Below are positions 29,417-51,727 of a stretch of DNA of 64,000 bases, in pieces (within the stretch, counting starts at the first letter, position 1; each line of letters starts with the position of its first letter). Both the position numbers and the translations under genes were made by a program. Origin of the DNA: a virus (taxonomy: Duplodnaviria > Caudoviricetes); IMG/VR virus record IMGVR_UViG_3300022377_000098, positions 1-64,000 of that record. One strand, given 5' to 3'. The notes beneath the pieces are model-generated. The model searched no databases, was not told the DNA's origin, and saw nothing but the letters and a program-made list of their open reading frames with translations.

Positions 29417-31813
29417 TTAATTCCACCCCGTCATAACGCCACCATTAAAGTTTATTGTTACGGTACCGCCATCAGATTTTGTCAGTGGCCCGATTGAGCC
29501 ATTCCAGCCATTTGTACCGTTAATCGTAAGCCCACTACAATCTACTGTGCCACTCGTGGCAATCAATCCGTTTGCGTGCAGTTCATTCGCTTTCAGCGCG
29601 CCCATGATTACCTGTGCATAGCTGCCACTGTTACTAAAATATGTGCCATGCCCGCTTGTGGGCTGAAAGCACATATCATATGTGCCCGTTTCAGGGTTGC
29701 TGCTCACGCCCAAATGTCCCAGCTTAGAGCCGTTATAGTAAAAGTCAAATCCGTCACCAGTAAACTGTACGGATTGGCTTGAACCGTCCTTGTGGTTGAA
29801 CGCGTACACAATGGCATCTGAACTCTGCGTAATCGCTGTGCTAACAACCGAATTAACTTCTGTCCTCGATACCTTGCTGCTGATTTCATCCGCCTGCTGT
29901 GTAATCTGCGACTGCAAACCGCCCACCTTGTCATTGACGGATGACGTGATAGAGTCGGCAGTCATTTTTATTTCTGCGTTGGTTTTCGTTTCGGAGTTCG
30001 TCACAGACAAATCAATCGTGTTGTACAGTTGCTTAATGTCGCTCATTTCGTCACCGTGTGACACCGTGCTTTCCAGCCCGTCAGCAAGCTTCTGAATTTT
30101 GATGCGCAGTTCTTCAGATTTCGTGTTCAGCGCTTGTAATTCATCCCACAGCTTTTCGGATTCAGAATAAAAATCGGAGGAATTTTCGGCCTGCGACTTT
30201 GCTTCACAGGAGATTGCTTCGGCAGAGTTCAGCTTATAAGTCAGATTGGTAATGACTGACTTGCGTCCCTCAATGTCCACAATGTCCCCCGCTTCCAGTG
30301 CAGGGTTGCTGTAAATCGTTGCGCTGTATGGCGTAATGGTGTTGCCTATCAGGTGTGGAGCTATATTGTCCACAATCTGCTGCACATTTGCCACATCACG
30401 GTGCTGCCGGACTGTTACCAGTCTGCCGGGTAAATCCGAAAAATCAGCAGACGTCAGCAGCTTGCCTTTGTACTCAATCTTTGCCGCATCAATTCCAGCA
30501 AAGCAACTATCCGACTGCAAGCGTGCAATGTCGTTATACAACACATCTACCAGCGCATTTATGCACGTCCATGCGTTTGTGCCGCTTTCCTTGTCCGTCT
30601 TTTTTGTGATATATCCTAAGTCAGCGGTTAAGTCCGCTTCTTCCTGTGCCATGCTTGACTGCGCAGTTTCGTAATAACTGGTAATGTACTTTGTCAATCC
30701 GTCTGGCAAGTCCTGCTTTGGCTCAAATGCGGCCGTTGCAACAGTTTTCGCACTGTCCTTTAGGTATGCAATGCAGGACTTCACATCTGAATCATACTGT
30801 TTTGCGCTGTCCACAAAGGTTTTACGCTCCGCGTCCGTGGGATTGTATGTACCGCCGTACCGGCTGCAATAGTTTTGCAGTTCCACGCACTGCGATTTGA
30901 TTCCCGCCAGTCGCGCAGGTACATCCGTATCCTTGCTTTTGATGGCGGAGTTGATGTTGACCGCCCATTCGTCGCAAATAACCTGTTCATATATTGCAGC
31001 TTGCAGTAGCTTATTGTCAGAATCTTTCAGGGTAATTACATACCCATCGTTGCCGGACTTCGCGTCAACATTTTTACTGTCAATCTTAACGCCGGTCACG
31101 GTAATATTGTCTTTTGCAGGCTCATACTTCTGGTAACTGCTGATATTGTACGGTGCGGTTGAATAGTCAAACCACTTGAATTCAAGTTCTCCGTCCGCAT
31201 TGCATTGCGCATAACATCCTGCCAACTGTGCAATGTTCGCAATCACATCGTGATATGTGGAAGATGAATACTGCGGGTCTCTGAAAATCTGATAATCACT
31301 ATTATGAAAAGTTTTAGTTTTCAGTGAAATTCCGCACTTGTCACAAACCTGCTGTGCAAGGTTTCCCAATGTGACCGGATAAGTAACATCCATGTCAACT
31401 TTGCTGTCTGACTTAGAGAGATTTCCATATGCAGAAACCGTTATTGTATTGCGACCCTTGTAGTCATATGCGTTGTATACACCTTGCTTCACCCATTCTA
31501 CCGTGTCGCCGGTATAATCGCGCTTGACAACCATGCCAATGTACACGGTAATGCTTGCTTTGCAGAAATCGCACTGCGTAAACTTTCCGTCAAAGTTATT
31601 CAGCATGATTGTACATAAGTCTGTAATCGCGGAGCCTACTGTATAATCAGACTTTGAAGAAACTCCGCTATCAATGGTTACACTGCCTTGCATGATGTCT
31701 GCATCTTTTAGCGGGAATTCTGTTCCGTTTGCCAACTTCACATCTGCTTTGAAGTGGAATTCTCTGCCATTTAGCAGAACAAATTTCTAAAAATCATCCG
31801 ATACTGGTTTCAA
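29417..31813 (-). CDS. Minor tail / baseplate hub protein (1 in-frame TAG at codon 9)
   Basis: TTG start with AAGGTGG RBS; MKPVSDDF*KFVLLNGREFHFKADVKLANG continues into track ORF 29417..31741. Confidence 0.75.
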
Positions 31814-31826
31814 TCTATCGCCACCT

Positions 31827-32204
31827 TTACACTTCGACAAAGTCAAATTTTATGTTTGAAATCATGGACTGGCTAAACCGCCCATTTTGCTTCACAAAAT
31901 AATTGACTGGCGCGCTTCTGTCACCCACATAAAATGTTGCTGTGCGGTATCCTCCAAGCCTTATGTCCGGATATGTCAGCAGGAATGTTTCTGGCTGAAC
32001 GTGCTGTAACAGCACAGATGCTCTTGCTTCCGTCATAGGAGCCCATGTGCAAGTAAGCTTCACCTACTGTGCCACTCTATCTTTGTGCATTAACCCCTAC
32101 TGGTCGCGCCCTGCTTCTGAATCTGATATGTCTTGCAATGCCCATTCCATGGACTGCGGGGTTTCAATGGTGTTTCCGTTTACCATCAATGTTGACTGTG
32201 CCAT
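31827..32204 (-). CDS. Distal-tail-type (DUF6711-like) protein (in-frame TAG at codons 36 and 47)
   Basis: W.LQDISDSEAGRDQ*GLMHKDRVAQ*VKLTCTW ... TFYVGDRSAP; one continuous conserved domain across the TAGs at 32097-32099 and 32064-32066. Confidence 0.85.
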
Positions 32205-32330
32205 TCAGCTTCACCGTCCTTTACAATAAAAAAAGAGTATCACACTCATTTCTGAATATGACGCTCTTATGGCGCTCTATGAAAACATAAATTTTTTTAA
32301 TTATATTTTTATTTTAGCATGCTTGAACTG

Positions 32331-32351
32331 ATTTCGTCACTCAAAACCTGT
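32331..32351 (-). promoter_or_regulatory. Repeated phage promoter / regulator box
   Basis: ACAGGTTTTGAGTGACGAAAT is identical at 48953-48973 with a near copy at 58885-58902; each is followed by an AT-rich -10-like tract. Confidence 0.55.
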
Positions 32352-32380
32352 GAACTCAATGTTAATAGTTGCTTCCATTT

Positions 32381-32469
32381 GGTAGTCAATTTTTTTGACT
32401 AGGTGGTCTAATTTCTTGACTAGGGGTAGTCAAATAATTTGACTAGGGTAGTCTAGTTTCTTGACTACC
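32381..32469. repeat. Four ~22-bp palindromic iteron-like units next to an AT-rich tract
   Basis: GGT(A/G)GTC-N9-TTGACTA repeated four times, then TATAATATAATTATAATATATATA. Confidence 0.65.
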
Positions 32470-32634
32470 TCTAATCCTTTATTTAAATATAATATAATTA
32501 TAATATATATAAAGCGCGGAGTTTTTAAAAAAATCTCCACGCAAAATCTAAAAAACGCTTCGCAAAAAAAATTCTGGTCAAAGGGAAAAAGACAAAAGAA
32601 AAGACCCACTTGAAAAATCAAGTGAGCCTAATCG

Positions 32635-35600
32635 TTAATGAGTTGGAACGTAACGTCTACTATCGATTGCTTTGTAATTTTGAGTTGAATCGTAAATGCT
32701 CTTGCCGTCAAGGTCTGCTGTAACATGAAGTTGAATTGGTTTTCCGCTGTTACTTTGCAGAATTGCAAGGATTGCGCCAACCTGATTTACAAGTTCATTC
32801 TGATTGGATGAATTTGCTGAATTGCCATTTGTCTGCTGTTCAGCAATGCCCTGTGCAATCTCTGCATAGGACTCTTTACGCATTGGTAAAGCGGCTTCTT
32901 TTCCTTTTTCACCTATGCCTATCAGCGTAGGTGCGTCATAGATGCCTCCATTTGCGTTCCAACCGCCCCAATCGATGTTTCCGATACCTTTTGCGTATCC
33001 GTGTCCTTGTCCCCACACGCCGTCAGGAGAACCATAACGCGCCCATGTGTAACGGATGGACGCGAGGATGTTTGATAACGGGTCAAGAATGTTCGTGTTG
33101 TATCCGGGCAAAGCGTAAGTCGAAAATGTTTCAGGGATTAATTGCATCAAGCCTTTAGACGGATGCCCAGCGTAATAATTTACGTCATGCAGGTCTGACG
33201 GGTCGACCTGCCCACTGGATTCAGTGTTCATCTGTGCCAGCAGCAAATCCACATTGTGCGTGGAATAATGTCCAGTCATCATAAGCGCCTTAGATGCAAG
33301 GCTTCTCCACTGTTCAACTCCAGAGCCAACATTTGCAACCGCACTCATTGCAACTTCCATTGCACTCTTGAAGTTCGGAATGCCATAGCCAAGAATGTTT
33401 CCAGAGTTTGAATTGCGATGCTTTCTGAATACACCCTCTGCGCCATCGCTTCCACTTGTGTTGCCCTCAATCGTATTTACAAGACCGCTTGCAATGCTCT
33501 CAACGATGCCGATATGGTCGGCGGTACCGTTCTTGTCCCAATCATAGAAAATCAAATCGCCGCGTGCAGGATTGTTAGTCCAGCGGTTGGCTGACTTGAA
33601 ATGGCTCATGGAATCCTCGCAGGAAGCAGATAGATATTCATCCACTCCCGCACGTTTCAAACACCAAGACACGAACATATCGCACCAAGCGGCACCGTTC
33701 ATTCCGAAGTCGCGCCCAAACTTTGTGAAGTCTGCATGACCGGCATTGGCTGCTTTATCGTCCAGACTGCTGTTTGAACCTTTTTCGAGATAGCCCAATT
33801 CCGATTCTGCAATCTTTAGGAATGCTTCCACGGTGCCGTTTCCGGGTGCTGTAAACTCTGCGAGTTGCTTTTTGATGAAGTCAACGGAATGACTTGTCAA
33901 GAACTGTACTGTGCTCTTTTCCATCTCGTTCCATGGGAAGTTAATGGATTGCATAGCCGTGTTTTTGTCTATAGCGGCGTGTAAGAGCATTTCGGGTTTG
34001 TCTAGGTAATTCCATATGTTTGTAGAAAAAGTGTCTAGAACGGCCTTAGAAGTGCCGAAAAAGTCGCCTATACCGTTCGCATAGTGTGGGAACATCTGCT
34101 TTGTCTGTTTTGCAGGCAGTACAGACGAACCGGCAGGCAAATCAGGAATCAGCACATTGCGCCCTTGCGGAATAAATGCGTGACCGTTTGGGAGCTGAAC
34201 CATTTCGCGATAAGTAGAGCCGGATTGGTCGTTGACAAGTGCTGCTCCGCCCGGATGATGCCCTGAACCATAGGCATAGTGTTTGATGCTGATTGGCTTT
34301 ACAGTTGCTTTAGAACCGACCGCAGACAGCACAGAGTTGATGCCCGCCACTACACCATTAATTGCGCCACCAATTTTATCAGCAACATTGTTGTTGATGG
34401 CTTTGGAATGCTGATTCACAATGTTGTCAGAATCGCTCATGTAAATCTGTGCCGACTGTTTCACTTTACTGAAATAAGTACTTGCATCAGATGAAATTGC
34501 TTTGAATTTACCGGAAGCATTGCTGTACATGCTGGAAGCTTTGGAACTCACATCACGTTCAGCAGACGCAAAGTTGCTCTGTTCAAAAGACTTTGCAGCA
34601 GAGAAATTTGCATTTGCACTTTTGGAAATCCCACTGAACTTTCCATCAATGAATGTGCTAATCCCATTCCACTTTGTGTTTGTGTCTGTCTGGATAGTGG
34701 CAGATGTATCAGAAACATTTGCACTGATTCCTTTCAGAAGCGTAGGCACAGAATTGTTCAGGCTTGCAGAGATTTCCTGATACTTTTTTGCGGTATAGTC
34801 TGTTTCGTCTGAAACAATTTTCTTGCGGGTGTCGGCAGAAGTGCGAAGATTGTCTGTAATCTGCTTAACCTTTGCACCGGATTCTCCCAAAATGCTGGAA
34901 TCGGTCTTTCCATTAACATTGAACACATTAGCAATAACTGTGCTTCCACTTTCGCCAGACGTTTTAGAATTTTCCACAATTCCCTTTGCGAGAGCGGAAA
35001 ACGTGCTGCTGTTCAATGGTAAAATAGCTTCGGAACCGGCCTCACCGACAACAGATAAAATTGGAGATGTTGTAATGCCACCCCTTGCTGAAAATGCAAC
35101 ACCAAGCAATTTAAGGATTTTGGGTATTGCCCCACTTATTAATCCTGCTCCACCAAGAGCGCCAGCTAAATCAGAACCGGCTTTTGGCGGGTTTGTCTTT
35201 TGTATGGCTGCAGTCTGCTTTCCAGCCGAGTTCCACGCTTGACTAAACCAGTTTCCCACACTTTGCAGTGCTTTCCCAATGTTCTGAAATACAGTTGAAA
35301 AAGCAGTAAGCTGATACTGACAAGTCTTTTGCGTGTTGGTCTGCAGATTTGTTCCAAACTTTGCAAAATCGTCTGATATGCCTTTCAGCTTTGCGTTAAC
35401 CCGGTTGTGAGTTTCTCCGAGATAATATGATGCACTTGTGAGCACAGCTAACCATGTTGTTTTTGCCAAAGTCGGTATGCTTTTTGCGATATCCTGAAAA
35501 CTCTGATTTGCGCCTTTTGAAAAGGCACTTACCTTATTGCCTGTTTGAGAATTGAGTTTTGATGACGTTTGAGAAAGTACGCTTTGCCACATTGCACTTG

Positions 35601-37749
35601 TAGCAGCAGTGACAGTACTTTCCATTCCACTAAATATCGATTCTGAATTTGCACTAAATCCAGATAACTTTTTTTGTGCTGACTGTGACTTTAGGCTCGT
35701 TTCAGAGTCAATATGGCTCCACGACTGCGCCCATGATGCTGCCATTGCAGTACCTGCCGCTCCAAATGAAACCTGCATATTGGTTGATAGAGAATTTACT
35801 TTTTCTTCTACAGGCTCAAATGATGGCAGAAATAAAGAAGAATCGAGCGCTGGAATTACTGCCGGCTGTACTTCTGGAGCGGAAATTGGCTGCTGATACA
35901 AAGCTTTACCATATAGAAAATAATCAAGCACAACCGCAGGAGCGATCAGAGGTTCAAATACTGGTGCTGCTACAGGCTCCTGATACCTGCCTTTTGACTT
36001 CTGGTAATCTCCATCATCCAGAGGCGGCACATACACTGGAGGAATTTCAAGGCTAGGAACCGGAATCTGCTGAACTGCTTTTGCAACAGCTTCTGCTCCC
36101 TCTTTAACCTTTTGAGTAACGGTTTCAACGCTTTTCTTAGTTGCCTTTTCTTCCTTATCCCTTTTGTCGTCAATCTTGTCAAAAACACCTTTAATGTTCT
36201 TGAAAAGGTCGTTAAAATTCCAGTTTGACTTTGGAGTAGGAATTGTTTTGAACATTTTACTATAGTCAGGGTCACTACTCTTTTTACTGTCAGAATCAGA
36301 GGACTCTTTTTTATTCAGAACATTCAGTTCATCAAACCCCATAACCGTTCTCTGGAGTTCTTTTACTTTCTTCTTTGCCTTATCAGCACTGTCGCCTGTT
36401 TTGTCAAGTGAAGCAGCATAGTCAACATTCGTCTTTGTTGCAATAGTGACAGTCTTTTGCCCTGTAATCTGTGCAATGAAAATTGCAAGCTTATTAGCCG
36501 CTGCCGCAATCCCGTCTACAATATTAGTTATTGCCGGAGAAATTGCTTTCAATATTGCTAAAAGCGGTGCTGCAATCGCATTTTTTAGGTAGGTGAAACT
36601 GCTCATATACTTTGACAAAGTATCATTTGCGTCTTTATTACCTAGCGCAGCGTCTTTGAACCCTTCTGTAATACTGTTAAGTACGCCCTGAAACGCAGTG
36701 AATGCAATCATTCCAGTCATCATGTGCTTGATAATCGTTAGAGTGCTTTGGCCTGCGCCTTTTGCTTTGTTCCCCGCTCTTTCTGATTTATTACCAAACT
36801 TATCCATAGCAGAACCAGCTTCATTCGTAGTGGAAGCAATCTGCTCCATCTTCTCCGCAACTTTCTGCTGCTTTGCGGTTAGGCTGTTCATGGAATTTCC
36901 AGCCTTTAATACTCTGCTTTCCAGCTTTAAGTATTCCTCACTGCCAACGCCCTTTGAAGCGCCTGCTTCTTGTGCCTTTACTTTCAGATTTTGGTACGCA
37001 GTGGCGGCATTGTCAATCTGTGCAGCAAGTGACCGCAACTGTGCTTCAAGATTTGCAAATTGTGCGGCAGAATCACCAGAAATACCATTCATAGAGGATT
37101 TCAGACGTTCAATATACTGCGTCACTTCCTCAATGGCTTTTGTAGAATGGCTCGTGTTAACTTGCGCTTGCGTAGGCTGGCTCATAGCCTTTCTCAAATC
37201 AGAAACGTTCGGTTGCATAGAATGGTTTGCACTCACAGATTCACTTGCTTGACGCTGCAACGCAGACTGTGCAGCTTCGGTTGACATTTTATCAGTGCCA
37301 CCATTGACATATCTGTCTACGGCTTTTGCCGCTAAATCAGTAATGGAATTGTCAGAATCCGCCATAAATTTTTTAGCCTGCGCCGTCTTTTCAAGAGCAG
37401 CAGACAATTTTTCTGCTTGAATCTGTGAGCGTTGCATGGACACGTTTGCACGGTCAAGGCGCGCCTGATACATAGCCATGTTTGATTCTGCTTTTTTGGT
37501 GGCCTGCACATTTTTGTTTGTAACGTCTGCCCCCTCTTTTTCTGTATCATAGAACTTTTTAAGAGAAGCAAACGCTTTTGAAGATGATGCAATTTTGTCC
37601 ATTTCTGCCGTAAAAGATTTCAGTGCAGGAATTGACTTAGTTAATGATGATTGGAAAGACTCAATCTTAGCAATCAGTTTGTCTAATGCACTATTTGCTT
37701 TTGTGGCAGAAGCCTATATTTCAATGTCAAGGCTGTTATCTTCTCCCAT
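32635..37749 (-). CDS. Tape measure protein with CHAP-like and lytic transglycosylase-like C-terminal domains (in-frame TAG at codon 12)
   Basis: MGEDNSLDIEI*ASATKANSALDKL joins track ORF 32635..37602; WCDMFVSW/HIGIVE and ESSG..GLMQLIP.TF motifs. Confidence 0.88.
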
Positions 37750-37813
37750 AAATAATCACACTCCATCTATATAAAAATAGGGATACAGCACGTCTGCCAT
37801 ACCCCTGTTTTCG

Positions 37814-38185
37814 TTAACATCTTCGTTCTCCCGTAATGACTTTGGGAGCAGTGCCGTTAAGCATTTTATCAATCTCCTCTGACCGCTTACGGAAGTATGT
37901 TTCCATTGACTGTTGCTGCTCTTTTACAGACTCTTGCTTGCTCTTGGGAGCAAGCATTGATTCTGGCTTTGTCGGATACTGTACGCTGTCAGTTAAACAA
38001 GCGCCAACAGCCTGCATTACATAGTAGCCTTGCAACCATGCAGCCGTATCAGCCCGCTGCTGCCATAACTCAATTTCAGCTTCATGCTTTATGTTGTAGG
38101 CATTCACATAAAGCCAAAACAATTCTGGTTCAGCGTTCCAAAACTCGTCATAGCTACACCCTGCTATTACGGCCAATGGGAACAA
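37814..38185 (-). CDS. Tail assembly chaperone-associated ORF
   Basis: G.SYDEFW..EP......Y..AY...AWLQG.YV..AV motif; between chaperone and TMP; true start uncertain. Confidence 0.7.
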   Translation of the reverse strand: MFPLAVIAGCSYDEFWNAEPELFWLYVNAYNIKHEAEIELWQQRADTAAWLQGYYVMQAVGACLTDSVQYPTKPESMLAPKSKQESVKEQQQSMETYFRKRSEEIDKMLNGTAPKVITGERRC

Positions 38186-38235
38186 TTCACATTCAAATTG
38201 TTCAGTTGCAGTTTTGTACTGCTTTTGCGGTTCTG

Positions 38236-38571
38236 TTACGCTGTTTTCTTCGGAGCCACGAGAAATGTCTTGCTCTTTGCAGACTTCCCGCCCTCGGTAA
38301 AAACCTCCATGAAAGGCTCTACCAGAGCACTGTAAATTTCATCCACTCCGAATTCTTCGATTGCCTTATCGGAAATTTCAACAGCTTCGGAATAGCTGAT
38401 ATTCGGGTGGAACTTACCAAGCCCGCAGTAAAACAGTTTGTCGGCAGAAGTGTAGATTTTGTCCTACAGGTCGGAAACATTGCCGCCGATGCTCTCAAAC
38501 TTACGAACAGAAGCGCGGTCATAGAACAGTTTGTAGGTCTTTTCACCCACATTTACATCAAAAGAATTCAT
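38236..38571 (-). CDS. Tail assembly chaperone (in-frame TAG at codon 36)
   Basis: GGAGG RBS; MNSFDVNVGEKTYKLFYDRASVRKFESIGGNVSDL*DKIYTSADKLFYCGL; missing from the ORF track because of the TAG at 38464-38466. Confidence 0.8.
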
Positions 38572-38613
38572 ATTGTTATACCTCCGTTACATTCCTTAAA
38601 ATTTTAGTTTCTG

Positions 38614-39051
38614 TTAAACAGTAGCAATCATTGTGCTTGTGTCTGCTACATGGTCGTGACTGGAAACGTTGACTGCCAGAGAGCACTTGCCTGCCTGCCC
38701 AGCAGAATAACCACTAATCCATGTTGCACCGGTTCCGACAAAGTGTTCGCCGCTGCCATCCTGATAGACAATGAGAAAATCCTTTGGAATTTTCAAACTT
38801 ACATATCCGCTTACAGCCGTATAGTTTGCTTCGGTGTGGTTGTACTCGAAATCATATGTAGGCGTGTCGGGACGGTCGGAAACGTACTGCTTGTATTCAC
38901 TGTCCAATGTGGTAACTTCCAGTTTGTTAGGAGTGCCACCGGTGTCAGGAGTCTTAACAACGGATACCAGCTTTTCATACTAGCCAGCATCGTTCTTTTT
39001 CATCAGTTTAATGCCAATATCAGTAAGTGCAATAACATTTGCATCAGCCAT
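38614..39051 (-). CDS. Major tail protein (in-frame TAG at codon 24)
   Basis: GGAGG RBS; MKKNDAG*YEKLVSVVKTPDTGGTPNKLEVTTLD; TAG at 38980-38982. Confidence 0.85.
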
Positions 39052-39068: not shown

Positions 39069-39467
39069 TTACGAATAGATTTTGTTTCGGTAAGCGTCAT
39101 ACCGGCATGAATACCGCATAACGTACCTATAAATTGTCGTGTCTGAAACGTTCTGCATTGTGCCGGAAAACTCGCACTTCATGTGCAAGTCATTTTCCAG
39201 AGAATCAGCAATAGCAGAACGGATTTTCATAGCTGTGGTTTCAGCAGTGCCGCCTTTAGTGTAAATCTCAATTTGGCAGGTAAATGAATACTTGCGTTCT
39301 CCATAATCAAGCGTGTGCTCAATTTCAGGGAAGTCAACATTCTGCACTGTGACATACGGGAATTGTGTGGACTGATTCTGAAAAGGCTTTACAACCAGTG
39401 CAGCAGGACATACAGAAAGTACCGCTTTCTTGACATATGTATAAACTGCATTTGTAAGGTCAACCAT
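39069..39467 (-). CDS. Tail terminator protein
   Basis: 132 aa; FPYVTV, QIEIY motifs; synteny. Confidence 0.7.
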   Translation of the reverse strand: MVDLTNAVYTYVKKAVLSVCPAALVVKPFQNQSTQFPYVTVQNVDFPEIEHTLDYGERKYSFTCQIEIYTKGGTAETTAMKIRSAIADSLENDLHMKCEFSGTMQNVSDTTIYRYVMRYSCRYDAYRNKIYS

Positions 39468-39951
39468 TCACAATCACTCTCAATTCCTTATCGGTTAGTT
39501 CTTTTGCACGTTGTTTCAAATACTGTGCCGTCTTGTAAACAAAAGCGTTAGCAGGTTGTCCTTGCGTCCAACGTAGTTTCTGCGCCTTTTCATCAAAGTA
39601 CCACCATCCGGCAGTGCCATGACTGTTTGAATCATACACCCATCCGGGAGCAGGATTAGGATGTGGACTGGTTGCGCCTTTAATCCCGGTTCCATACTCA
39701 ACAAAGATAGCGTAGTCTGAACCAACCGAAATTCTTCCAGTACAGGTTGATTCATCAAACGTGCTGGAAATGCTGTCTGACAGTTCCCCCGTAGAGCGTT
39801 TGACGACTGACTTCATGTAATCGCGCCCCTCTTGCGTAAGCTGCGAAATCACGCTTGCAAGGGTAGAATCAACCTTGGAATTCAGACTTTCCAGTTGCTT
39901 TTTTGCTTCTTCCACAGACTATGGAGAAAGTGCATCAAAAGAGATTTTCAT
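39460..39951 (-). CDS. HK97 gp10-like neck protein (in-frame TAG at codon 11)
   Basis: MKISFDALSP*SVEEAKKQL; TGELSDSI, YAIFVEYGTG motifs; TAG at 39919-39921. Confidence 0.85.
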
Positions 39952-40352
39952 GTTTCTGTGCCTGCGACCTTTTTAATGTACACAGCATACTGCCAACCAG
40001 TGAAAATTACCTGTTTGACTGTATAGTTGTTGTTCATCGGGTGCTCTGCATCATCGTCCCGCAAGTTTCCGTTTGGTGTGACTCCGTACCATGCCGCTTC
40101 AAATTCCTCTGGAGAATACCCCTCAACATCAAACGGTGTGAACACGCATTTCTGCATTTTGGAAACGTCAGCGCCGTACTCTTGAATGTCTGCCGTATCG
40201 GTTATTGGCTGCACGTTCACATGGAATTCGGCAGGTTCGTCATAGCAGGAAATCATGTTCCCTGTTTCGAGCCCATTTTCGTCTTTTTCAGGAACAGGCG
40301 GCAGTTTCTTCGCAAACCAGATTGACTTTTTATCTTTGTTCAGGCTTCTCAT
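39948..40352 (-). CDS. Head closure protein
   Basis: MRSLNKDKK..W, DENG.ETG....Y..P motifs. Confidence 0.75.
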   Translation of the reverse strand: MRSLNKDKKSIWFAKKLPPVPEKDENGLETGNMISCYDEPAEFHVNVQPITDTADIQEYGADVSKMQKCVFTPFDVEGYSPEEFEAAWYGVTPNGNLRDDDAEHPMNNNYTVKQVIFTGWQYAVYIKKVAGTET

Positions 40353-40669
40353 GAAACCATCACCGCCATAGGAATGACTTCTTTCAGCAGGGAATCAGGA
40401 ATATCAGCATTTTCATAAGAGCGGTTGACTCCGTTCTCATTGTGAGCCGTTTCCCCCTCCGCTCCTTGCTTGTTATAAAGAAAAATTGCAATCTGAATTT
40501 GCAGTTCGTTATATTGGCTTTCCAGTGGAGCGTCAGGCGGTGACCGTCTGCGCTCTTTAATTCTCGACTCTGCCCGGTCAAGCATAAGGTTCAGCTTTTC
40601 ATCCTAGGAAGTGTCGATTACTGGAATATCAAGCCATACTTTCAGCTAATCAAGCTGTGTAGTAGTCAT
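40349..40669 (-). CDS. Head-tail connector (in-frame TAG at codons 8 and 22)
   Basis: MTTTQLD*LKVWLDIPVIDTS*DEKLNLMLDRA ... NKQGAEGET.H.ENGV.RSYE. Confidence 0.85.
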
Positions 40670-40674: not shown

Positions 40675-40830
40675 TTATCCTTTCCGCGTTACTCGTTTCT
40701 TCTCTGTGACGGCTTCTGCTACAGCGGGCTTAGAATCTGTATGCACCGGCTGTTTTACCGGCACATCTTCACCCGCCATATAAAACTTGTCACCATGTTT
40801 TACAATGTGGTCGAATTTCACAGCAATCAA
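40675..40830 (-). CDS. Small hypothetical virion-module protein
   Basis: 51 aa, H.VKH.G.FY.AGE.VP; overlaps the capsid stop codon. Confidence 0.5.
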   Translation of the reverse strand: MIAVKFDHIVKHGDKFYMAGEDVPVKQPVHTDSKPAVAEAVTEKKRVTRKG

Positions 40831-41906
40831 GCCACCTTTGCAACATAGACTTCGTCCATACGCTCATAGGACGGCGCAAGGATTTCGGAAGCGGTGGTAA
40901 TGGTCTGGTACGGCGCTTCTTTTGTGGTACTTACGGTGATGGTGATACCTGTGTTGAAGATAGCAAGCTGGTTGCCAGCCTGACGTGCAGAGCGTTCCTC
41001 CGGTGTCATGCCATACCACATAGTGCCAACGGAGCCGCCAGCGGGCAGGAAAGTAACATAACCATCCGGCATAAACGGATGTGCAGTGCCATCAATGCCC
41101 TTGTACATCTTATCGTAGACAATAATATCAATGCCGCACTTGATACGTAAGAACTGTGCAAGCAGATTATCATCCATGAAGATGTTTGCAGTAGCGTTCT
41201 GCGCCAGAATTGCAGACTTAATCTGTGCATTCTCCGGCAGATTATCAAACGTTGCCTGTGACATAATGGCAGTGGACAGCACTGTTCCGTTCTCTTTCAG
41301 AGCATTGCGCTTGATGGTACGAATGTCAGATAGCGGCTTAGAATTAGCCGTATCACTCCACAGGTTTGTGCCGGTCAAAGCAGTGTAGTGCTTTGCTTTC
41401 CATGTGCCGTCAGCATCATAGTTCATGGTGTAACTTGCACCATCTTTTCCAGTCAAATTGATAATGGGACTTCCGTCAACTGGTGCAAGCAGACTGAATG
41501 CCATAATTTCAGGCACTACCATAGCACCATCACGCAAAGTACCAGCATCATCAAAGATGCGGTTCAAAACGTCCTGCACAAACGGGTCGTTTGCATCACG
41601 ATTCTGCACTTCCATCAAATCCTGAATGTCCTTTTCTTTGACAATCATAGACTCACGGAAGAATGCCAGTTCCGTTTCAGAACGGCTCACACCTGCACGG
41701 TCGCGGAATGTCGGCTTTGCATCAAAGCTAGACAGATTGATTGCAACCGGAAGTCCCTTTGTGCCTTTCAGCCAAGACACAGTTAGCCCGGTTTTCTTTC
41801 GCGGTGCGAAGAAAGCACTGCCAAGATACGGGATTTCATTGGAATACGCAGTTGTCCAATCGTTTGCAACTGCATTTGCCGTAAAAATGTCCTAAAGTTC
41901 AGCCAT
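40827..41906 (-). CDS. Major capsid protein, lambda gpE-like (in-frame TAG at codon 5)
   Basis: AGGAGG RBS; MAEL*DIFTANAVANDW...IPYLG..FF..RKK.GL.VSWLKG; TAG at 41892-41894. Confidence 0.9.
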
Positions 41907-42919: not shown

Positions 42920-43033
42920 TTTTCTTTCCTCCGTTGTGCCGCACCGTAACAGATATATAGTCCTCATAAGTGTTCAATCTGTGCCGTTGCGTCTGATTGT
43001 TTTTGATTTATAAGTAAGTGGAATCCCACATAC

Positions 43034-43420
43034 TCACGAATTTAAATAGTCTGCGATTTCAGACAAACTCTTGAAATATTTTCCACCATTTCGCTGAACC
43101 ATAAGGCCAACCCTATCAAGGGATTTATACTGTCCAATGCTGAACTTCAAATCTGGTTCATCAATAAAGGCGAATACGGTCTTTTCAGGGCGTTTGTTGC
43201 TATCGTCAACGACTTCTGCAATGCTGTAAACTCCCTGCATTCGTGGAGTGATAACGTACAAGCAAAAATCATCATTTGTGCGCTCCTGCAATTCCTACTG
43301 ATAGCATTCTTCTGTCCAGTCAGGTACAACCGGATTGAAATAATCAATCTACAGCATTGAAATCAGTTTTTTACGCCATTTGCTTTCTGCACAGGTGCCG
43401 CCTAAAAACACTTTCTACAT
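43034..43420 (-). CDS. Nucleoside 2-deoxyribosyltransferase-like protein (in-frame TAG at codons 2, 24 and 42)
   Basis: M*KVFLGGTCAESKWRKKLISML*IDYFNPVVPDWTEECYQ*ELQER..DFCLYVITP.M.GVYSIAEVVDDSNKRP. Confidence 0.85.
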
Positions 43421-43438
43421 ACTGTTATGTCCTCAATT

Positions 43439-44245: not shown

Positions 44246-44270
44246 TTCCTTTGCTTATGGTTCTATAACA

Positions 44271-44344
44271 TGGAGCGAATAACCAGAATCGAACTGGCAC
44301 CGTCTGATTGGAAGTCAGAAGTTCTACCGTTGAACTATATCCGC
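44271..44344 (-). tRNA. tRNA-Gly (TCC)
   Basis: GCGGATATAGTTCAACGGTAGAACTTCTGACTTCCAATCAGACGGTGCCAGTTCGATTCTGGTTATTCGCTCCA. Confidence 0.88.
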
Positions 44345-44411
44345 ATAAGTGAATAGCTTTACCGCACGCTGTGGCGGTCGTTTTGCAGGCAGTAGGCTAT
44401 TAGACTTGCCG

Positions 44412-44463
44412 TGGTGGAAGATTGAGGAATCGAACCTCACTTCATGTGCACACCTTTTCTTCC
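44412..44463 (-). ncRNA. Miniature tRNA-like RNA (acceptor + T arm + CCA)
   Basis: GGAAGA...TGAGG TTCGATT CCTCA ATCTTCC A CCA; 52 nt; no D or anticodon arm. Confidence 0.5.
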
Positions 44464-44476
44464 ATAAAGCGGCATT

Positions 44477-44635
44477 TCAGCCGCAATGATTTCTTCCAAT
44501 TTGCAGAAGCGTTTGCTTTTTGATTTCTTGCAGCCGTTCAAGTTCTGCAATCTGCTCTGCGTTTGGGCGTGGCAAAGAGCGGATGTTATCTATCTGCTTA
44601 TTTACATCACGCCACTGTTTCACGCTGTCATTCAT
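44477..44635 (-). CDS. Small hypothetical protein
   Basis: 52-aa ORF coupled to the upstream stop codon. Confidence 0.4.
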   Translation of the reverse strand: MNDSVKQWRDVNKQIDNIRSLPRPNAEQIAELERLQEIKKQTLLQIGRNHCG

Positions 44636-44852
44636 CTGCTTTTGTAAGGTCGATGTCTTTTAAAAACTTTTCAAAGCTGTCACGATAACGAGCAATTATA
44701 ATTGTCATTGCCACATATGCCACGGCAAAGAATGCAGTTACAACAATCAGGGGCAAGAATACTACCGCCCACGGAATAGCAGGAAGTGCAAGCAGCTTCA
44801 AGAGCAAAATCAGCGCTGTAAGAACCGAAGTTGGAATATAAATCTCTTTCAT
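44628..44852 (-). CDS. Small membrane protein
   Basis: Two hydrophobic segments; LLKL...I.W..VFLPL. Confidence 0.65.
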   Translation of the reverse strand: MKEIYIPTSVLTALILLLKLLALPAIPWAVVFLPLIVVTAFFAVAYVAMTIIIARYRDSFEKFLKDIDLTKADE

Positions 44853-45082
44853 TTTTTCTCCTTTTCCACATTAGCTCGCAATTTCTTGATATAAGCGTCA
44901 GATAAGCTTGTTTCGCAATTTGTTGCATTGAGTTCAAGTTTTAGTATGGGAAGCGAATGGACGGAATCCTGCAAGAGCGTAAAAGACCTTACGTCATGAA
45001 TCTCATGTCCATCTATGAAGATGCGGGTAATTGCGCAGTTGGTCTTAGCTTGAACCTCACCTTTAATCTGAATATTTTGCAT
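44849..45082 (-). CDS. Hypothetical protein
   Basis: 77 aa with GGAGG RBS. Confidence 0.6.
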   Translation of the reverse strand: MQNIQIKGEVQAKTNCAITRIFIDGHEIHDVRSFTLLQDSVHSLPILKLELNATNCETSLSDAYIKKLRANVEKEKK

Positions 45083-45160
45083 TTTAAATACCTCCGTTAA
45101 TTAAAAAATAGCCGAAGCAGACAGCCTATTGGCTGCAAGTTTCGGTTCTCTTAGGAACTC

Positions 45161-45328
45161 TTATTTTATGTACCCACTCTGCATATTCCCACAACGCGGG
45201 CATTTGACTTCATAGTATCCGTTAAACTCACCCAGTTTTTTGTTGCACTTTCGGCACCGGGCTTCCTTTAGATTCGGTGTTGTTTGTTGGATTCGCAAGT
45301 TGTTTGCTGTCTGAACTTCCTTTAGCAT
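45161..45328 (-). CDS. Com-like zinc-ribbon regulator (55 aa)
   Basis: EARCRKCNKKLGEFNGYYEVKCPRCGNMQSGYIK identical to the prophage 1 copy; overlaps the portal 3' end. Confidence 0.75.
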   Translation of the reverse strand: MLKEVQTANNLRIQQTTPNLKEARCRKCNKKLGEFNGYYEVKCPRCGNMQSGYIK

Positions 45329-46829
45329 CTGATTCCTCATTTCCTGTAGGAATTGTGTTGTTTGTAGGCGCAAGCATAGCCGCCGCTTCATCCGTTTTCT
45401 GCTTCCAATATTCTTCTCCACGCTTTGCCATTTCGTTAGGCATTTCTGTAAAGTTGGAAAGCTCAATCGCATCTGTAGGAGTAAGAACTTTAGTCGCCAT
45501 CAAAGTTGAAAGTGTCTGCGACTTGTTAAGCATATTGTTTGTGCGGTTACGGACAAAGTTTACCTCAACATCCATCGGCTTGATGTCAATGTTGCTGAAT
45601 CGCTTTAAAATCTTGCAAACCATACGGAGCATTTGCTTTTCTGACTTCTTGAAATTTCTCTGCTTACACCGTGCTACAACTTCAAGGCTCTGGTATCCGT
45701 CACGCAGATAAACTGCATCCCCTGTGTCGCCAGTGCCGCCGCCCTTTGCCTTACGGTCAGGAATTCCGGTAATGGCGTACACATAGTCAATCAAAGTCTG
45801 TGCAAGCGTTTCAGCTTCGTTCTGATTGACGCCGGAATTTACATACTTCACGTCTGCTGGATTCTGCTGGTCGGAAGTCATTTCAAGAGCCATGCCTTGC
45901 TTCATCTTTTCAAAATCAGAAGTCCCACCATTCTCTTTTGCCGTTTTCAAGTGGCAGTTCACAAACACAAGCAGGCTGTTTACAAGCTGTTCAACACTGT
46001 TTACACGGTCACTGTGCAGCTTGTTCAACGCGTCAAGAATTGTCAACACGGATTCAAAGTCGCCCATACGGCACTGATTGTTTTTGTACTCCACAATTGG
46101 AACAGCACCAAGCAAATGTGCTTTTGGATATCCGCTTACAAGGTCTTTTGCAGTAATAGTTGTCTGTACTCCAGCGACTTCATACTGATATTGGTATGTG
46201 TTGTCATACACCGTGTACACTCTGCCGGTTGCGTTTCCGTAATCATCTAAAATATCAGAGAACGTAACGCCAAGTACAGGCTTTTTTACAGAATCAGTGG
46301 AATAAATGACGAATGTTGAACGTGCATCAAGTGTCGGAATCTCAAATGGTGCTTCATCCTCATCGCATTTTTCATCCACCGCAACAAGACGATATCCAAC
46401 GCCACAAACGGAAGCACTTTCGCCAACGTCCATGTCGTTTGCGGCTTTATCTTCGCTGTCCATATACTCATTTAGAGAGTCAATATCGCTGCGCTCTTTA
46501 TCGCTACCGCCTTTTGAAGTGTACTTGATTGGCTCGCCGAGGAAATAGCCGTTTGCGTTACGCACAATAGCCAGAGCGTTGTTAATCACGATGCGGTTAT
46601 TGATTTCCGGCCTAACCTTTTTTTCGCGGTAAATGATTGGCTGATTGCCTTTGTAGTAATTATACAGATATTCAATTTCCTGCTGATTATTTGCAAACTG
46701 TACCATAGCGCCGTTTACGATTCCCGGTATGGTTTCTTCACTGATTTCATTTGAAGTGCATAATTCCTATCTACCTAAAAATGTATGGTCTTCACCATAC
46801 CATGCAGTGGATAGAATATCTTCAATCAT
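45228..46829 (-). CDS. Portal protein, SPP1 gp6-like (in-frame TAG at codon 21)
   Basis: HTFLGR*ELCTSNEISEE..; YY.G.Q.I...NNRIV.N.A..IV....GYF.GEPI motif; TAG at 46767-46769. Confidence 0.9.
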
Positions 46830-47042
46830 TTATTCTTCACTTCCTTTAAGTCTATCTGGTGGACAAGTCTTACATTTCCCATCATCATCAAGGACTATGT
46901 AAAATCCGGCTGGAGCGCTGTATCTGGTGAATTTGTTGCCAGCTTCACACCATCCGTCTGTCTTGAAGATAACGTTTCCTGCGTCAACAAGAGATTTTAC
47001 CCATTCAGGAACTGGTTTGCTCCCAATTTCGTATGACTTCAA
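46830..47042 (-). CDS. Hypothetical protein
   Basis: TTG start after AGGTGA; between the suppressor tRNA and the portal. Confidence 0.55.
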   Translation of the reverse strand: MKSYEIGSKPVPEWVKSLVDAGNVIFKTDGWCEAGNKFTRYSAPAGFYIVLDDDGKCKTCPPDRLKGSEE

Positions 47043-47063
47043 CAAATCACCTGAATATTTTTT

Positions 47064-47139
47064 TGGTGCGCCATCTGCGGCTCGAACGCAGGCCACCCGG
47101 ATTTAGAGTCCGGTGCTCTTCCAACTAAGTTAATGGCGC
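47064..47139 (-). tRNA. Amber suppressor tRNA (anticodon CUA), tRNA-Lys-like body
   Basis: GCGCCAT TA ACTT AGTTGGAA GAGC A CCGGA CTCTAAA TCCGG GTGGC CTGCG TTCGAGC CGCAG ATGGCGC A CCA; 76 nt. Confidence 0.93.
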
Positions 47140-47326
47140 ATATAATAGCGGTATGGCATAATTGGACGGCGCAAAATTGCGCTGTCTAAATTCTTCACTC
47201 AATCCAGATTTGGTGTCAGTGATTTTTGATAATTATTTTAAACTGGTCGATTTCGACCACTTTAAATTCAGAGTACCTATCATGGTGAGAATTATTAATA
47301 GACGCGATAGGCTTTCCTAAAGACTT

Positions 47327-47383
47327 TGGTGAGATACCCCGGTCACGACCCGGCGGACACGTCCTATTGGACTGCCGTAACTC
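47327..47383 (-). ncRNA. Miniature tRNA-like RNA with CCA end
   Basis: GAGTTAC..GTCC-AATA-GGAC..CCGG GTCGTGA CCGG..GTATCTC A CCA; 57 nt. Confidence 0.45.
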
Positions 47384-47542
47384 ATAATAAGCGGGCTTTA
47401 TTCCATGTGCCTGCTAGTCATGGTCAAACTTTCTAGGTAAGTTTGCGAATCCAATCCAGTTCGCATGGACTAGCGCCCTGTTGACGGGGACTAGCATATT
47501 TCAGCTATAATATTCACCCTGTACGCCATCAGCTTTGGGAAT

Positions 47543-47630
47543 TGGCGGAAGATAGAGGATTCGAACTCCTGTTGCGTTACCGCTTACCTGCTTTCAAGGC
47601 AGGCTCTTTAAACCGCTCGGACAATCTTCC
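47543..47630 (-). tRNA. tRNA-Ser (TGA)
   Basis: GGAAGATTGTCCGAGCGGTTTAAAGAG CCTGC CTTGAAA GCAGG, long variable arm, G73-CCA. Confidence 0.88.
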
Positions 47631-47681
47631 ACAAAGATACCCGCCATTGTGCACATTGTTAAGAGGTGAGGTGGGTTTGTT

Positions 47682-47757
47682 TGGATGCGGATGCAGGATT
47701 CGAACCTGCGACTTCTAACTCATGGGGCTAGCGAGCTGACCACTGCTCTAATCCGCA
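47682..47757 (-). tRNA. tRNA with CAT anticodon (Met/Ile2-type), atypical
   Basis: TGCGGAT..GAGC AGTGGTCA GCTC G CTAGC CCCATGA GTTAG..ATCCGCA T CCA; C at position 33. Confidence 0.75.
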
Positions 47758-47820
47758 ATATATTGGGCGGCTACCTGCGCCGCCCGCTGCCAGTTTTCAT
47801 GGCAAAGTTTCAAGAATTGG

Positions 47821-48579
47821 TTATGCCGCTTTTGATTCTCTTTCAATTACAGGAAGTATTCCATGCTTTTTGAGCAACTCGTAAAGGAACAGTCGGCCTT
47901 TTTGTGTCCATCTGGTGTGAAGCACACTTCCGGGCGTTCCATCGTGATGGATTATCTGCTTTGTTGTACTCTTTGTATAGCCCTCATGCTGATATTTGCC
48001 GTACAAGAGCCATTGCCCACCCAATTTGTACTGTATGCCTTTATCATGGAGCAACTTATTCATACTTTCGCCACTCATGCCGTAATCTTTGGCAATTTGG
48101 GTGATGTTCACTGCATCCCTGCTGCTAAGTATTTCGTCAACATAGTTTGCCTTTGGCTCATACTCCGCGATTAACTGCTTTTGCTGTGTATTCTCTAAGC
48201 TAAGCGACTTTATGGTATCGTTAGCAATTTGCAAAGCGCGTGCCATAACCTTTTCAGGGCTGTTCCAGTTTTTCTCAATCTGCAAGAAATACTGTCGTGC
48301 TTGCTTTCCACGTTCCGTGCGCTGAATCATGCAGAGTTCTTTTGCCATGTCAATAGAGAGCGAATAGTCTGTGATTTCAGTCCATGGATTTTTAGGATTA
48401 TTGGTCGGACATTTTTGTCCGGGCAATTTTGCAAAGTCCACATTTTCTAAAAATCCATATTCGCACATTCTCGAAAACCAATGTGGAAAGTCTGTTTTGA
48501 CTTCAATGAACTTATGCAGTTCCCGTGCCGAAACTGCCGGTCTGTCGTTCTCATACTTGATTGGAATTAGTTCGTTCAT
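47821..48579 (-). CDS. Phage antirepressor (AntA/AntB + KilAC)
   Basis: VSARELH.F.EV.T.F..WF.RM.EYGF.E..DF; SIDMAKE.CMIQRTE.GK; ITQIAKDYGMS...WTQKGR.FLY. Confidence 0.88.
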   Translation of the reverse strand: MNELIPIKYENDRPAVSARELHKFIEVKTDFPHWFSRMCEYGFLENVDFAKLPGQKCPTNNPKNPWTEITDYSLSIDMAKELCMIQRTERGKQARQYFLQIEKNWNSPEKVMARALQIANDTIKSLSLENTQQKQLIAEYEPKANYVDEILSSRDAVNITQIAKDYGMSGESMNKLLHDKGIQYKLGGQWLLYGKYQHEGYTKSTTKQIIHHDGTPGSVLHTRWTQKGRLFLYELLKKHGILPVIERESKAA

Positions 48580-48988
48580 TTTATAGGTACCTCCAAAAAT
48601 AATGTTCACATGGAGGGAATGGCAGGGGTTTATCCTGCTCGTTCGTTATTCCCATAAATCTTCAAACCGTTTCGGTGCCACTTTCGGTTCATACGCCGTC
48701 TGTGGCATATTTAGCGGCACTGTTGCGAAATACAGTACCGCTTTTCTTTACCGGCTGCATCCGGTAGCTGTGCTTCATGCAGTTGCACAGGTTGTAATTG
48801 CCAATTCCCGGATTCCAACCGAGGTCTCCCAATCAAATGGCGCTCTCTCAACTAAGCTACATTGGCATATTAGACGGCGCAGAAAGGAGTGTAAAGAGCG
48901 CCGCCCCATAAGAAATTTCTTACTCTATTTATATTTTAACGTCTGAAAAGAAATTTCGTCACTCAAAACCTGTTACAGAATTATGAAC

Positions 48989-51727
48989 TCACAGAGGAAT
49001 TTGACTTCTATCTATCATCCGTATGCTGTAGGCAGTCAGATTCTTTACAAGGTTGCTCAACATGGACAGTGCATCCGGTGCATCATCATGCTTTGCTTTT
49101 CCGTTCGTGGTAAAACTGCACACGTTGCGCATGAAAGCCTTATATTCTCTGCTCTGCTTTGACGGTTGAAGGAAAACGAAGTGCTTTATGATGTAGTCCG
49201 ACTCTGTAACAATACGTGTGATTTTATTGGTAGATGAAAAGAACGTCCTGACGGATGTATTGCCGTTGCCTTGTGAAATCATGTCACTAACGCTTTCGGC
49301 ATAGTACCCGCCACCGTTGTTCACCTCAACATCAAGCCGTGATACTTTATTCCTGACGCATAGTTTTGCAACCATAGGCTTTGTGACATCTGGCAAACCG
49401 TTATTGAATACCAAATCGCGTATGTACACCGTATCGCCGTAAACATAGCCACAAATTGCTGCCACATAGTCTTTACCCTGATTTTTAGAGTCGCAGACCG
49501 CCACAATGGAATCAGGTTTTGCATCTGGCGGCAGTTTGCCATCAAAATAGTGGAAATCGTCCTCATGATAAAGCACGCCCTCACGCTCTATTGGCCTTTG
49601 CTGATAGATTGCACCCCATGAGATATCGTCCATATTGTCACGGATATCCTCAAAATAGTCCCGTGAGAATCCAACATCATAATCATAGTCAAAATTTGAA
49701 CTTCCATCCTCATTTAGTGCAGGGATACGCACGAACTTGCTATATCCGTCACCCTCATACCTTGATTCAAGCCGCCCCAGCGGGTCATATACAGACCAAC
49801 GAGTGCCAATAATCAACATCTTGCAGCCCATTTTCATACGGCTCATAAGGTCATTCGTGAACTTATACCATAGCGTGTCCATGCGGTCACGGTTCATTGC
49901 TTCCTCAATACCGGAAACCATATCATCCGCATACAGCAAGCTTTCACAACGTGTGGCGCCGGTCAAGCCGCCATCAATAGAGCGGCAAGTAAGCGTTTTA
50001 AACCGGTGCTGATTCCGTAAGTCGAGCGTTTCCTCTTTTGAGTTTGTGTTTACCAGCTTTGAACCCGGAAAGATGTCTTTGTAAGTGTATTCATCATCTT
50101 TAATAAGCTGCAGCACGCCAGTGTAGAAAGAATTTGTCAGCTTGTCTGCATAAGCGGATGCCAAGCAAGGCATATCAGGATGTTTTCCAATCACCCATGC
50201 CATGAAAAATATACCTAGAGTGGTATTGTGCGTAATGATGTAATCATCCGTCACATAAAGCTGTGAGGGGTCGTCAACCATAATGCACTGGCACTCTTGT
50301 TTTCCAACATATTCCACCCTGTCAATGAATTTTTTGAATACTTTCCGCTTAGGAGAAAACTTATTTGCTTTTCGTGGCAAGTAAAACGGATGTGCAGAGC
50401 TGTTGAATTCAATGACAATTCTGTACACCAACTTGCCAAATACTTTTTCCCCTGCTTGATTTCTGTAATAATTTCCGTGCTTTTCTTTTACGTTTGCTTT
50501 GCCACCTAAAGAACGCACCAATTCCAACATCCCATCTCTCAACATAGGAGAAACGGTTGTGTATTCTATATCATTTCCGTCTGTATAACCATCTGTATCA
50601 AGCAACCCGCGTAAAAGTTCCCACCGACTCTATGTATCCGCATATTGATAGTCTTGCGGGATAAACTTTGTTTCGCTGTTTTTGCCTATGAGTCCATAAT
50701 GTAAAAGTGCTTGTTGCGTTTTGGACTTTATCATATATCCGTGGCTGTCACGAACAGTGTTATCCACTTTGCAAATATTGTATCCATATTTTGAAGTCCT
50801 TTTGTGTAGCGTATCCCCCTCTGGAAGAAGGCTCTTTAACCTTTCAACGAGTTCCGGGTCTGCGCTTGTAATATCAAGGTTTCCACTAGTAAGGCTTCCA
50901 TCCCCAAGCAAAGCGCCAACAATATACGGATGAAGCATAAGATCTCTATGATGAAATTCAACAGGGCTTACGTAATCAATGGAATAGTTATTACGTTTGC
51001 CATGTTCAACTCGCAAGTTTTCCATCATATCTTGAAGCTGAATATCTCTGTACTTATTCCCTCTAACCCTATCATCACGGGTCTGTACGTGCCAAATGTG
51101 TTCTTTGCAACATTCCGTGGATGTTCCATCGTTAAACACAACACGGTATACGTCTTTTACGCCTTGAGGAAATACGCCGATAACATTGCATTCGTTTCCA
51201 GAGCCGGATATAATTCTATCTCCGACTTCTACATTACCCATCTTTTTGAATCCGGTTGGTGTCAACACCTTGCAATACAAAGGCTGTGCTTTGCCAGCGC
51301 CCGGAGGAACTGAAAGCCCAAACCGCTTTAGTTTCCCATCTTCTAAGTTTTGCAAGTCTTGCACGATTGGCCGCAGCACACGCTCACGCGGCGGGTAGAA
51401 TTTCTTGTCAGGTTCCCTGTTCCTCTCCATATAAATCAAGTAGGAGTGGAAGTCATACGGAGCTGCAAAAAGAAATGTCTACCAATATTTATCTGTGTAG
51501 TTCTGCATCTGCACCGGTTTTAGTCCCTTTGGATTGCTCAAAATGATGTTTAGCGCTTTTCGCAGCCCCTCATTCTCCAACAGTGCCGCAGGCATATTAT
51601 TTTCTTTGTGATAAATTGACCGCAACGCTTCTCGCTTCAATGCCAATTCAGGCGCATCCATATCGTACATATGATATTTGACGTCATGTACCAGTTGCTT
51701 CTTTGCCCTTGTATAATCTACTGCCAT
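48989..51727 (-). CDS. Terminase large subunit with intein (in-frame TAG at codons 83 and 366)
   Basis: Three track ORFs (51479..51814, 50630..51439, 48989..50605) are one frame separated only by TAG; PPGAGK/T Walker A, DDM.SG.EEA, HDDAPD nuclease motif. Confidence 0.9.
50225..51289 (-). mobile_element. Intein (355 aa) with LAGLIDADG homing endonuclease, class 3-type
   Basis: Inserted at GAGK|AQPL...ITHN|TT; blocks GALLGDG and RGLLDTDG; Ala1 plus W (EHIW), C (ECQCI), T (ITHN) triplet. Confidence 0.88.

Follow-up and report, generated by a model that had tools for sequence, protein, structure and literature searches.

Recoding of the amber codon is an established feature of bacteriophages, in which TAG is read as glutamine with the help of a suppressor tRNA. 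Borges et al. (bioRxiv 10.1101/2021.08.26.457843) saw no reassignments other than TAG to Gln and TGA to Trp and proposed a lysogeny switch, and Pfennig et al. (bioRxiv 10.1101/2022.06.29.495998) likewise treated amber as Gln. Here we analyse the first 64 kb (64,000 nucleotides, hereafter the window) of the 72,269-base provirus record IMGVR_UViG_3300022377_000098, which contains two neighbouring prophages. The second, prophage 2, is a temperate phage of an anaerobic Clostridia-type bacterium; its late genes are interrupted by in-frame TAG codons, and a tRNA with a CUA anticodon, a presumed amber suppressor, is encoded among them. The sequences point to a stop-to-lysine reading in this phage.

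Prophage 2 resembles the code 15 phages, including Garnet and the Topaz prophage of Oscillospiraceae, in several respects: a phage tRNA(CUA), in-frame TAG in late structural genes, a standard-code host, an integrase and, for the most part, early genes that can be translated without a suppressor, and no phage-encoded synthetase or release factor. It differs from them in the residue, which would be Lys, in having TAG-free lysis genes and a GC content that is not low (44.6%), and in that its TAGs are rare and crowded at gene starts, whereas code 15 TAGs fragment genes throughout. Amber suppressors that insert lysine have been engineered in Escherichia coli (Normanly et al. 1990, as relayed in PMC1483225 and PMC9976931); they share with the phage tRNA the CUA anticodon and the acceptance of U35 and A73 by class II lysyl-tRNA synthetase (LysRS). 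Unlike those laboratory constructs, the tRNA described here is natural and conserved, as are its target codons, one of which is catalytic. The pyrrolysine (Pyl) code of archaea (bioRxiv 10.1101/2024.09.30.615893) also reads TAG as a lysine-related residue, but here no pyrrolysyl-tRNA synthetase (PylRS) was found, the tRNA is not of the Pyl type and the system is phage-borne. Finally, suppressor tRNAs that lie beside theta ribozymes in gut phages (bioRxiv 10.1101/2023.06.13.544163) are phage amber suppressors too, some with predicted non-Gln bodies; the isotypes predicted for them are Gln, Trp, Ile and Tyr, never Lys, and, unlike them, the window tRNA(CUA) has no Rfam ribozyme family near it. 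No report of phage TAG as Lys was found in the literature searched, a search that left most subscription papers outside.

An earlier note, made from the letters of the window alone, had counted 16 in-frame TAGs in 11 late genes and no other disruption. Both statements hold: all 16 are present on the minus strand where the note placed them, and no TAA, TGA or frameshift occurs inside the 11 genes (Table 1). The TAG assigned to the tail hub gene is in frame as well, although the start of that gene had to be corrected, most likely to 31813, which makes the TAG codon 9. Family profiles (PHROG) span the TAGs of the terminase/intein, capsid, adaptor, major tail and Dit-like proteins. We compared the window with seven relatives that differ from it in the amber genes by 7% of their DNA (G001), 15% (G002 and L173), 11–12% (L015 and L016) and 4% (L175), the seventh being L017. 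G001 is a prophage in the complete 3.0-Mb genome CP060696.1, which we take to be that of the type strain Caproicibacterium amylolyticum LBM18003. Orthologous codons are TAG in all these relatives. Apart from those in the nucleoside 2-deoxyribosyltransferase-like (NDT) gene, the TAGs are retained without exception in the relatives compared, terminase codon 83 included; of the three TAGs in the NDT-like gene, only that at codon 2 is kept across the clade. The second terminase TAG, codon 366, lies within the LAGLIDADG part of an intein. The stretches that can be made only by read-through, measured from the gene start to the first potential start codon beyond the TAG, contain 118 synonymous and 44 non-synonymous differences from G002, compared with 832 and 349 in the rest of the genes. 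The genes are therefore not dead, as these stretches are under purifying selection with the same ratio as the remainder. Eleven of the 16 TAG sites are also covered by contigs of two other runs (X4 and X6), with zero differences at the level of assembled contigs. TAG is thus almost certainly read as sense in the late genes of prophage 2.

The residue is best seen in the large terminase subunit. In the four intein-free relatives (G001, G002, L173 and L175), its Walker A motif reads PPGSG-TAG-ST, so that TAG occupies a column that is Lys in 65 of 65 homologues. This motif lines up with the Walker A of a phage terminase of known structure (PDB 8dgc_E); the lysine binds the phosphates of ATP, and replacing it with Ala is lethal in HK97 (PMC13595956). 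In the intein-bearing allele of the window, the Walker A lysine is AAA and a TAG lies in the endonuclease part of the intein itself, whereas the intein-free alleles have TAG at the lysine. In the Dit-position protein, all 20 homologues retrieved with Gln written in the query have Lys at codon 47, as do 22 of 24 weighted clusters of a larger homologue set; codon 36 of the chaperone-like protein is Lys in five of six homologues.

A Codetta-style column score over the 16 window sites gave Lys +19.1, Arg −1.1, Gln −3.1 and Glu −3.3. Control sets of 16 true Lys codons from the same proteins had a median score of 18.3, and sets of true Gln, Arg or Glu codons reached 19.1 in none of 5,000 draws each. 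The NDT homologues had been retrieved with Lys in the query; with that gene and Dit codon 47 left out, Lys still scores +11.4 and Gln −0.3. The tally of homologue residues, set beforehand as a check, thus favours Lys over Gln or Glu, and in the column test for code 15 (TAG=Gln) the TAGs do not align with Gln. The lysine consensus cited in the earlier note is borne out by the overall score, but not at capsid 5, tape measure 12, NDT 42, Dit 36 or intein 366, where the columns are not rich in Lys. The column at codon 30 of RusA, a gene beyond the window, is variable (E53, A19, Q3, R2, K1, T1) and was therefore left out of the residue evidence. Pairwise tblastn matches to distant gut phages (27–30% identity) place Gln at Dit 47, and were set aside because closer homologues in the multiple alignment give Lys. 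Taken together, the alignments indicate that lysine is very probably the main residue inserted at TAG.

The tRNA agrees with this assignment. It is a standard 76-nt cloverleaf with encoded CCA, G1-C72, C2-G71, A73, A31-U39, A10 and U13, and it is present in every related locus that covers its place. The earlier note had proposed a Lys body, and the closest of all tRNAs in the G001 genome is indeed tRNA-Lys(CUU), with 64 of 76 positions identical; the same host tRNA is closest to each of the four suppressor variants (64 for the window copy, and 59, 57 and 62 for the others). The CUA anticodon is one base from CUU. Bacterial Lys identity elements are A73, U34, U35 and U36, and those for Gln are G73, U1-A72, G2-C71, G3-C70, G10, U35, G36, A37 and U38 (PMC9976931). 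The window tRNA(CUA) has A73 and U35, and is without G73, U1-A72, G2-C71, G10, G36 and U38; judged by U1-A72, G73, G10 and U38, it does not qualify as a code 15 suppressor with Gln identity. In all suppressors of the clade, G10 and C13 of the host tRNA have become A10 and U13, and the loss of G10 would act against glutaminyl-tRNA synthetase (GlnRS). In E. coli, A31-U39 favours lysylation over GlnRS, amber suppressors being shared by LysRS and GlnRS (PMC1483225). The G001 suppressor (L037:5410-5485) differs from the window copy in its acceptor stem but shares its D and anticodon arms, a pattern suggestive of selection on these two arms.

The host enzymes were read from the G001 genome, that is, from the host of a relative and not the window's own host. 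It encodes a class II LysRS (lysS), GlnRS, release factor 1 (RF1; prfA) and a second release factor, with lysS and prfA above the cut-off, whereas the best PylRS (pylS) match is 23 bits against a cut-off of 178. The record itself contains no class IIb synthetase and no release factor. The G001 host uses the standard code, with an intact prfA and TAG ending two of 48 long flanking genes. Within G001, the CUA tRNA pattern has no match outside the prophage, and none of 300 related genomes searched contains it. Scans of GTDB with the capsid and with the tRNA pattern returned no matches, 100 relatives of G001 yielded only distant portals without TAG, and sister phages (68–69% capsid identity) had neither TAG nor a CUA tRNA in the loci fetched.

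TAG is a minor codon in these genes, accounting for 16 of 573 Lys-type codons in late genes (2.8%), and its placement is uneven: 14 of the 16 fall within the first 50 codons, compared with 109 of the 573 Lys codons (0 of 200,000 draws). The capsid, portal and tape measure genes have one TAG each, at the first Lys codon. In-frame TAG occurs in 11 of 25 late genes and one of 33 early genes (p=0.0002). The proposal that recoding is a late-gene feature is therefore right as to enrichment and too strict as to confinement, given that a single amber gene, RusA, was found among the early genes, its codon 30 TAG being conserved across the three genomes compared, G001 and G002 among them. It is also true, as the earlier note observed, that no late gene ends in TAG (13 end in TAA and 12 in TGA); this carries no evidential weight (0 of 25 late versus two of 33 early genes, p=0.5), and stop-codon usage by module was dropped as evidence of recoding. 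TAG still ends genes of prophage 2, among them the helix-turn-helix (HTH) gene ahead of the terminase. Read-through of the HTH gene was ruled out, its TAG being a true stop because the read-through extension is not conserved. With TAG still a stop and rare as a sense codon, the test for genome-wide reassignment failed, and the term 'new phage code' used in the earlier note is overstated. Since TAG is rare, crowded at gene starts and a stop elsewhere, the phenomenon is better termed suppressor-dependent amber-to-Lys read-through, and in this sparse form the sequences support the lysine reading.

A number of observations weigh against lysine as the residue, or against a function for the TAGs, and are best judged together with the alternatives they favour. 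Under ordinary code 15, host GlnRS would charge the tRNA and TAG would mean Gln. Gln is the only TAG reading in the phage surveys consulted, the host does have GlnRS, and database proteins of the relatives are translated with TAG=Q, by default and not by test. Moreover, A73 also occurs in one host tRNA-Gln, G2-C71 and G3-C70 are present in the G001 suppressor, and sporadic TAGs of the clade stand opposite CAG three times (and opposite AAG and CAT once each). However, under code 15 four genotypes would have Gln in place of the Walker A lysine of their terminase and the invariant Dit lysine would likewise be Gln, the Gln column score is 22 log units under that of Lys, and the tRNA body is Lys, not Gln. 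The CAG/TAG pairs do not outweigh the catalytic site, because CAG to TAG is a single transition and the columns are tolerant, two of them being rich in Arg, Lys and Glu. We regard code 15 as very improbable. A mixed reading, in which Lys would predominate and Gln have a real share because both synthetases accept the CUA tRNA through U35, fares a little better. LysRS and GlnRS compete for E. coli amber suppressors (PMC1483225) and both are in the host, many TAG columns are permissive for Lys, Arg, Gln or Glu, and those at capsid 5, tape measure 12, Dit 36, NDT 42, intein 366 and RusA 30 are not Lys-rich. Some insertion of Gln is thus possible. Yet all clade suppressors have exchanged the Gln element G10 for A10 and keep A73, A38 and A31-U39, and Gln at the Walker A of a multi-subunit motor would be costly. 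A substantial Gln share is therefore unlikely.

Pyrrolysine inserted by a host Pyl system might be suspected from ARAGORN, which labels these tRNAs Pyl by their anticodon, and from Pyl being a lysine derivative. It is extremely improbable, since no PylS passes the cut-off in G001 and the tRNA is a standard Lys-type cloverleaf; furthermore, Pyl blocks the amine that Walker A needs. Equally improbable is an origin of the TAGs in prophage decay, as nonsense mutations, or in errors of assembly. Two near-identical assemblies do differ by one AAG/TAG base in the portal, possibly an error. Nevertheless, at least five genotypes, which differ by up to 15% in DNA, have the same TAGs; this retention, the matching tRNA that is always present, purifying selection without TAA, TGA or frameshift, and the identical bases in other runs exclude both decay and assembly error. 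A more serious alternative shares the lysine reading and denies only the function: the ambers may have drifted in after the tRNA was gained, surviving where an early stop is cheapest, so that 5′ crowding would reflect stops that are least harmful. The spread of TAG over the 11 genes is not beyond chance (p=0.26), the lysis genes and the likely small terminase gene (54497-55378) have no TAG, and NDT sites come and go. Against drift, all TAGs outside NDT are kept, whereas 37% of AAG codons differ from G002, a contrast that is overstated as TAG has fewer silent exits; in addition, the longest genes have exactly one TAG, at the first or second Lys codon. Absence of any regulatory role is thus possible, though it seems to us the less convincing view.

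The best explanation, and a likely one, is that virion proteins are made by amber suppression with lysine, constituting a suppressor-dependent amber-to-Lys lock on late genes. The phage tRNA would have derived from tRNA-Lys(CUU) by one anticodon change; host class II LysRS would charge it, and the charged tRNA would compete with RF1 at UAG. In the lysogen, the tRNA would be scarce, so that RF1 aborts translation of leaky late mRNA within the first codons. Induction would lead to transcription of the tRNA cluster from a late promoter, the tRNA would accumulate and full-length proteins would be made. The candidate promoter is a conserved box ahead of the antirepressor–tRNA–portal run; copies lie at 32331-32351 and 58885-58900, the same three places are occupied in G001, and none was found in 62 kb of host flank. 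The terminase gene lies behind a perfect sigma-70-type promoter, the HTH gene and a terminator-like hairpin, which makes some leakage of its mRNA in the lysogen plausible. The lock would be a second layer on top of transcription, and overlapping TAG-free genes (head closure, tail completion and tail fibre) may be held by translational coupling. A late activator gene was looked for and none was identified. That the TAGs act as a regulatory lock is less certain than the identity of the residue, but more probable than not. For the fuller proposal, that natural TAG-to-Lys decoding in a clade of temperate phages works through one Lys-derived tRNA retuned against GlnRS (A10, U13) and used as a lock, we lean towards acceptance with some reserve.

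Prophage 1 has a tRNA(CUA) of its own, which adjoins a Rha gene; the nearby segment 15296-15462 is 97% like 45105-45271. Its late genes contain no in-frame TAG and one of them (6502-6840) ends in TAG. This tRNA could suppress the prophage 2 ambers in trans, or be a swapped cassette. A tRNA-like element with a shortened anticodon arm lies just behind the promoter-like box (48799-48866, minus strand; Rfam tRNA 36 bits, missed by ARAGORN), and a stretch 70% similar to it is found in prophage 1 at 16321-16448. The tRNA with a CAU anticodon (47682-47757, minus strand) has an odd anticodon loop (C33 and G38 per ARAGORN) and a U1-A72 pair, and a weak match to the abiF RNA motif (47639-47675, minus strand; 32.2 bits, gathering threshold 37) lies between tRNA-Met and tRNA-Ser. 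A further 21 IMG/VR contigs (L267-L287) carry loosely similar CUA tRNAs of mixed isotypes, none clearly Lys-bodied (best 59/76); in several of them, for example L271, L276 and L282, coding density rises when TAG is read through. Contigs L001 (4853-6454) and L002 differ by one base in 16,145, which makes portal codon 309 AAG or TAG; the difference fits Lys and carries little weight, as it may be an error. L015 (4228-5319) and L017 have a different capsid (41% identity) with no match to the codon 5 TAG, and keep the same amber sites and tRNA; the swap is that of a mosaic head module. Lastly, a 32-base perfect palindrome is located within the KilA-N gene (22872-22903).

Table 1. Positions of the genes, RNAs and signals discussed (window coordinates unless noted; TAG positions in brackets).
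Feature	Position	Strand	Remarks
Prophage 1, small	~1-22.5 kb (1-22568)		
Prophage 2, amber-bearing	from ~23.6 kb onward		
Tail hub protein	29417..31813	minus	TAG codon 9 (31787-31789)
Dit-position protein (DUF6711)	31827..32204	minus	TAG codons 36, 47 (32097, 32064)
Tape measure protein, 1704 aa	32635..37749	minus	One TAG, codon 12 (37714-37716)
Tail assembly chaperone-like	38236..38571	minus	TAG codon 36 (38464-38466); function suggested by position
Major tail protein	38614..39051	minus	TAG codon 24 (38980-38982)
Neck / HK97 gp10-like protein	39460..39951	minus	TAG codon 11 (39919-39921)
Head-tail adaptor	40349..40669	minus	TAG codons 8, 22 (40646, 40604)
Major capsid protein	40827..41906	minus	TAG codon 5 (41892-41894)
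NDT-like (PF15891)	43034..43420	minus	TAG codons 2, 24, 42 (43415, 43349, 43295)
Portal (SPP1 type)	45228..46829	minus	TAG codon 21 (46767-46769)
tRNA(CUA) on tRNA-Lys(CUU) body, presumed amber suppressor	47064..47139	minus	ARAGORN, Rfam
Promoter-like box ahead of antirepressor–tRNA–portal run	48953..48973	minus	Conserved; putative function
Terminase large subunit, 912 aa with intein	48989..51727	minus	TAG codon 83 (51479-51481), codon 366 (50630-50632)
Intein directly after Walker A lysine	50225..51292	minus	Absent from G001, G002, L173, L175
Walker A lysine of terminase	51293..51295	minus	AAA in window, TAG in four intein-free relatives
Hairpin and T run directly before terminase start, covers its ribosome-binding site	51728..51765	minus	z −4.7; terminator-like, putative function
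HTH gene ahead of terminase, ends in TAG	51777..52019	minus	Read-through extension not conserved
Perfect sigma-70-type promoter ahead of HTH gene	52043..52071	minus	
Second tRNA(CUA), Lys body (59/76), prophage 1	15214..15289	minus	
RusA resolvase gene, beyond window	67071-67493 of record (L266:3071-3493)	minus	TAG codon 30

Phage amber recoding is annotated as Gln by default, and this clade indicates that lysine, too, can be inserted; that a catalytic lysine is itself encoded by TAG makes for an unusually clean proof of the residue from sequence. Public databases hold the clade's proteins truncated or with Gln at TAG, and recoding this sparse escapes screens based on coding density. Because the same prophage is present in the complete genome CP060696.1, for which a cultured lysogen very likely exists, the proposal that recoding controls the switch from lysogeny to lysis is testable. 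If the lock is true, the ambers that open most virion genes, together with the one encoding the motor's catalytic lysine, would prevent any working motor or particle from being made before the tRNA is present.

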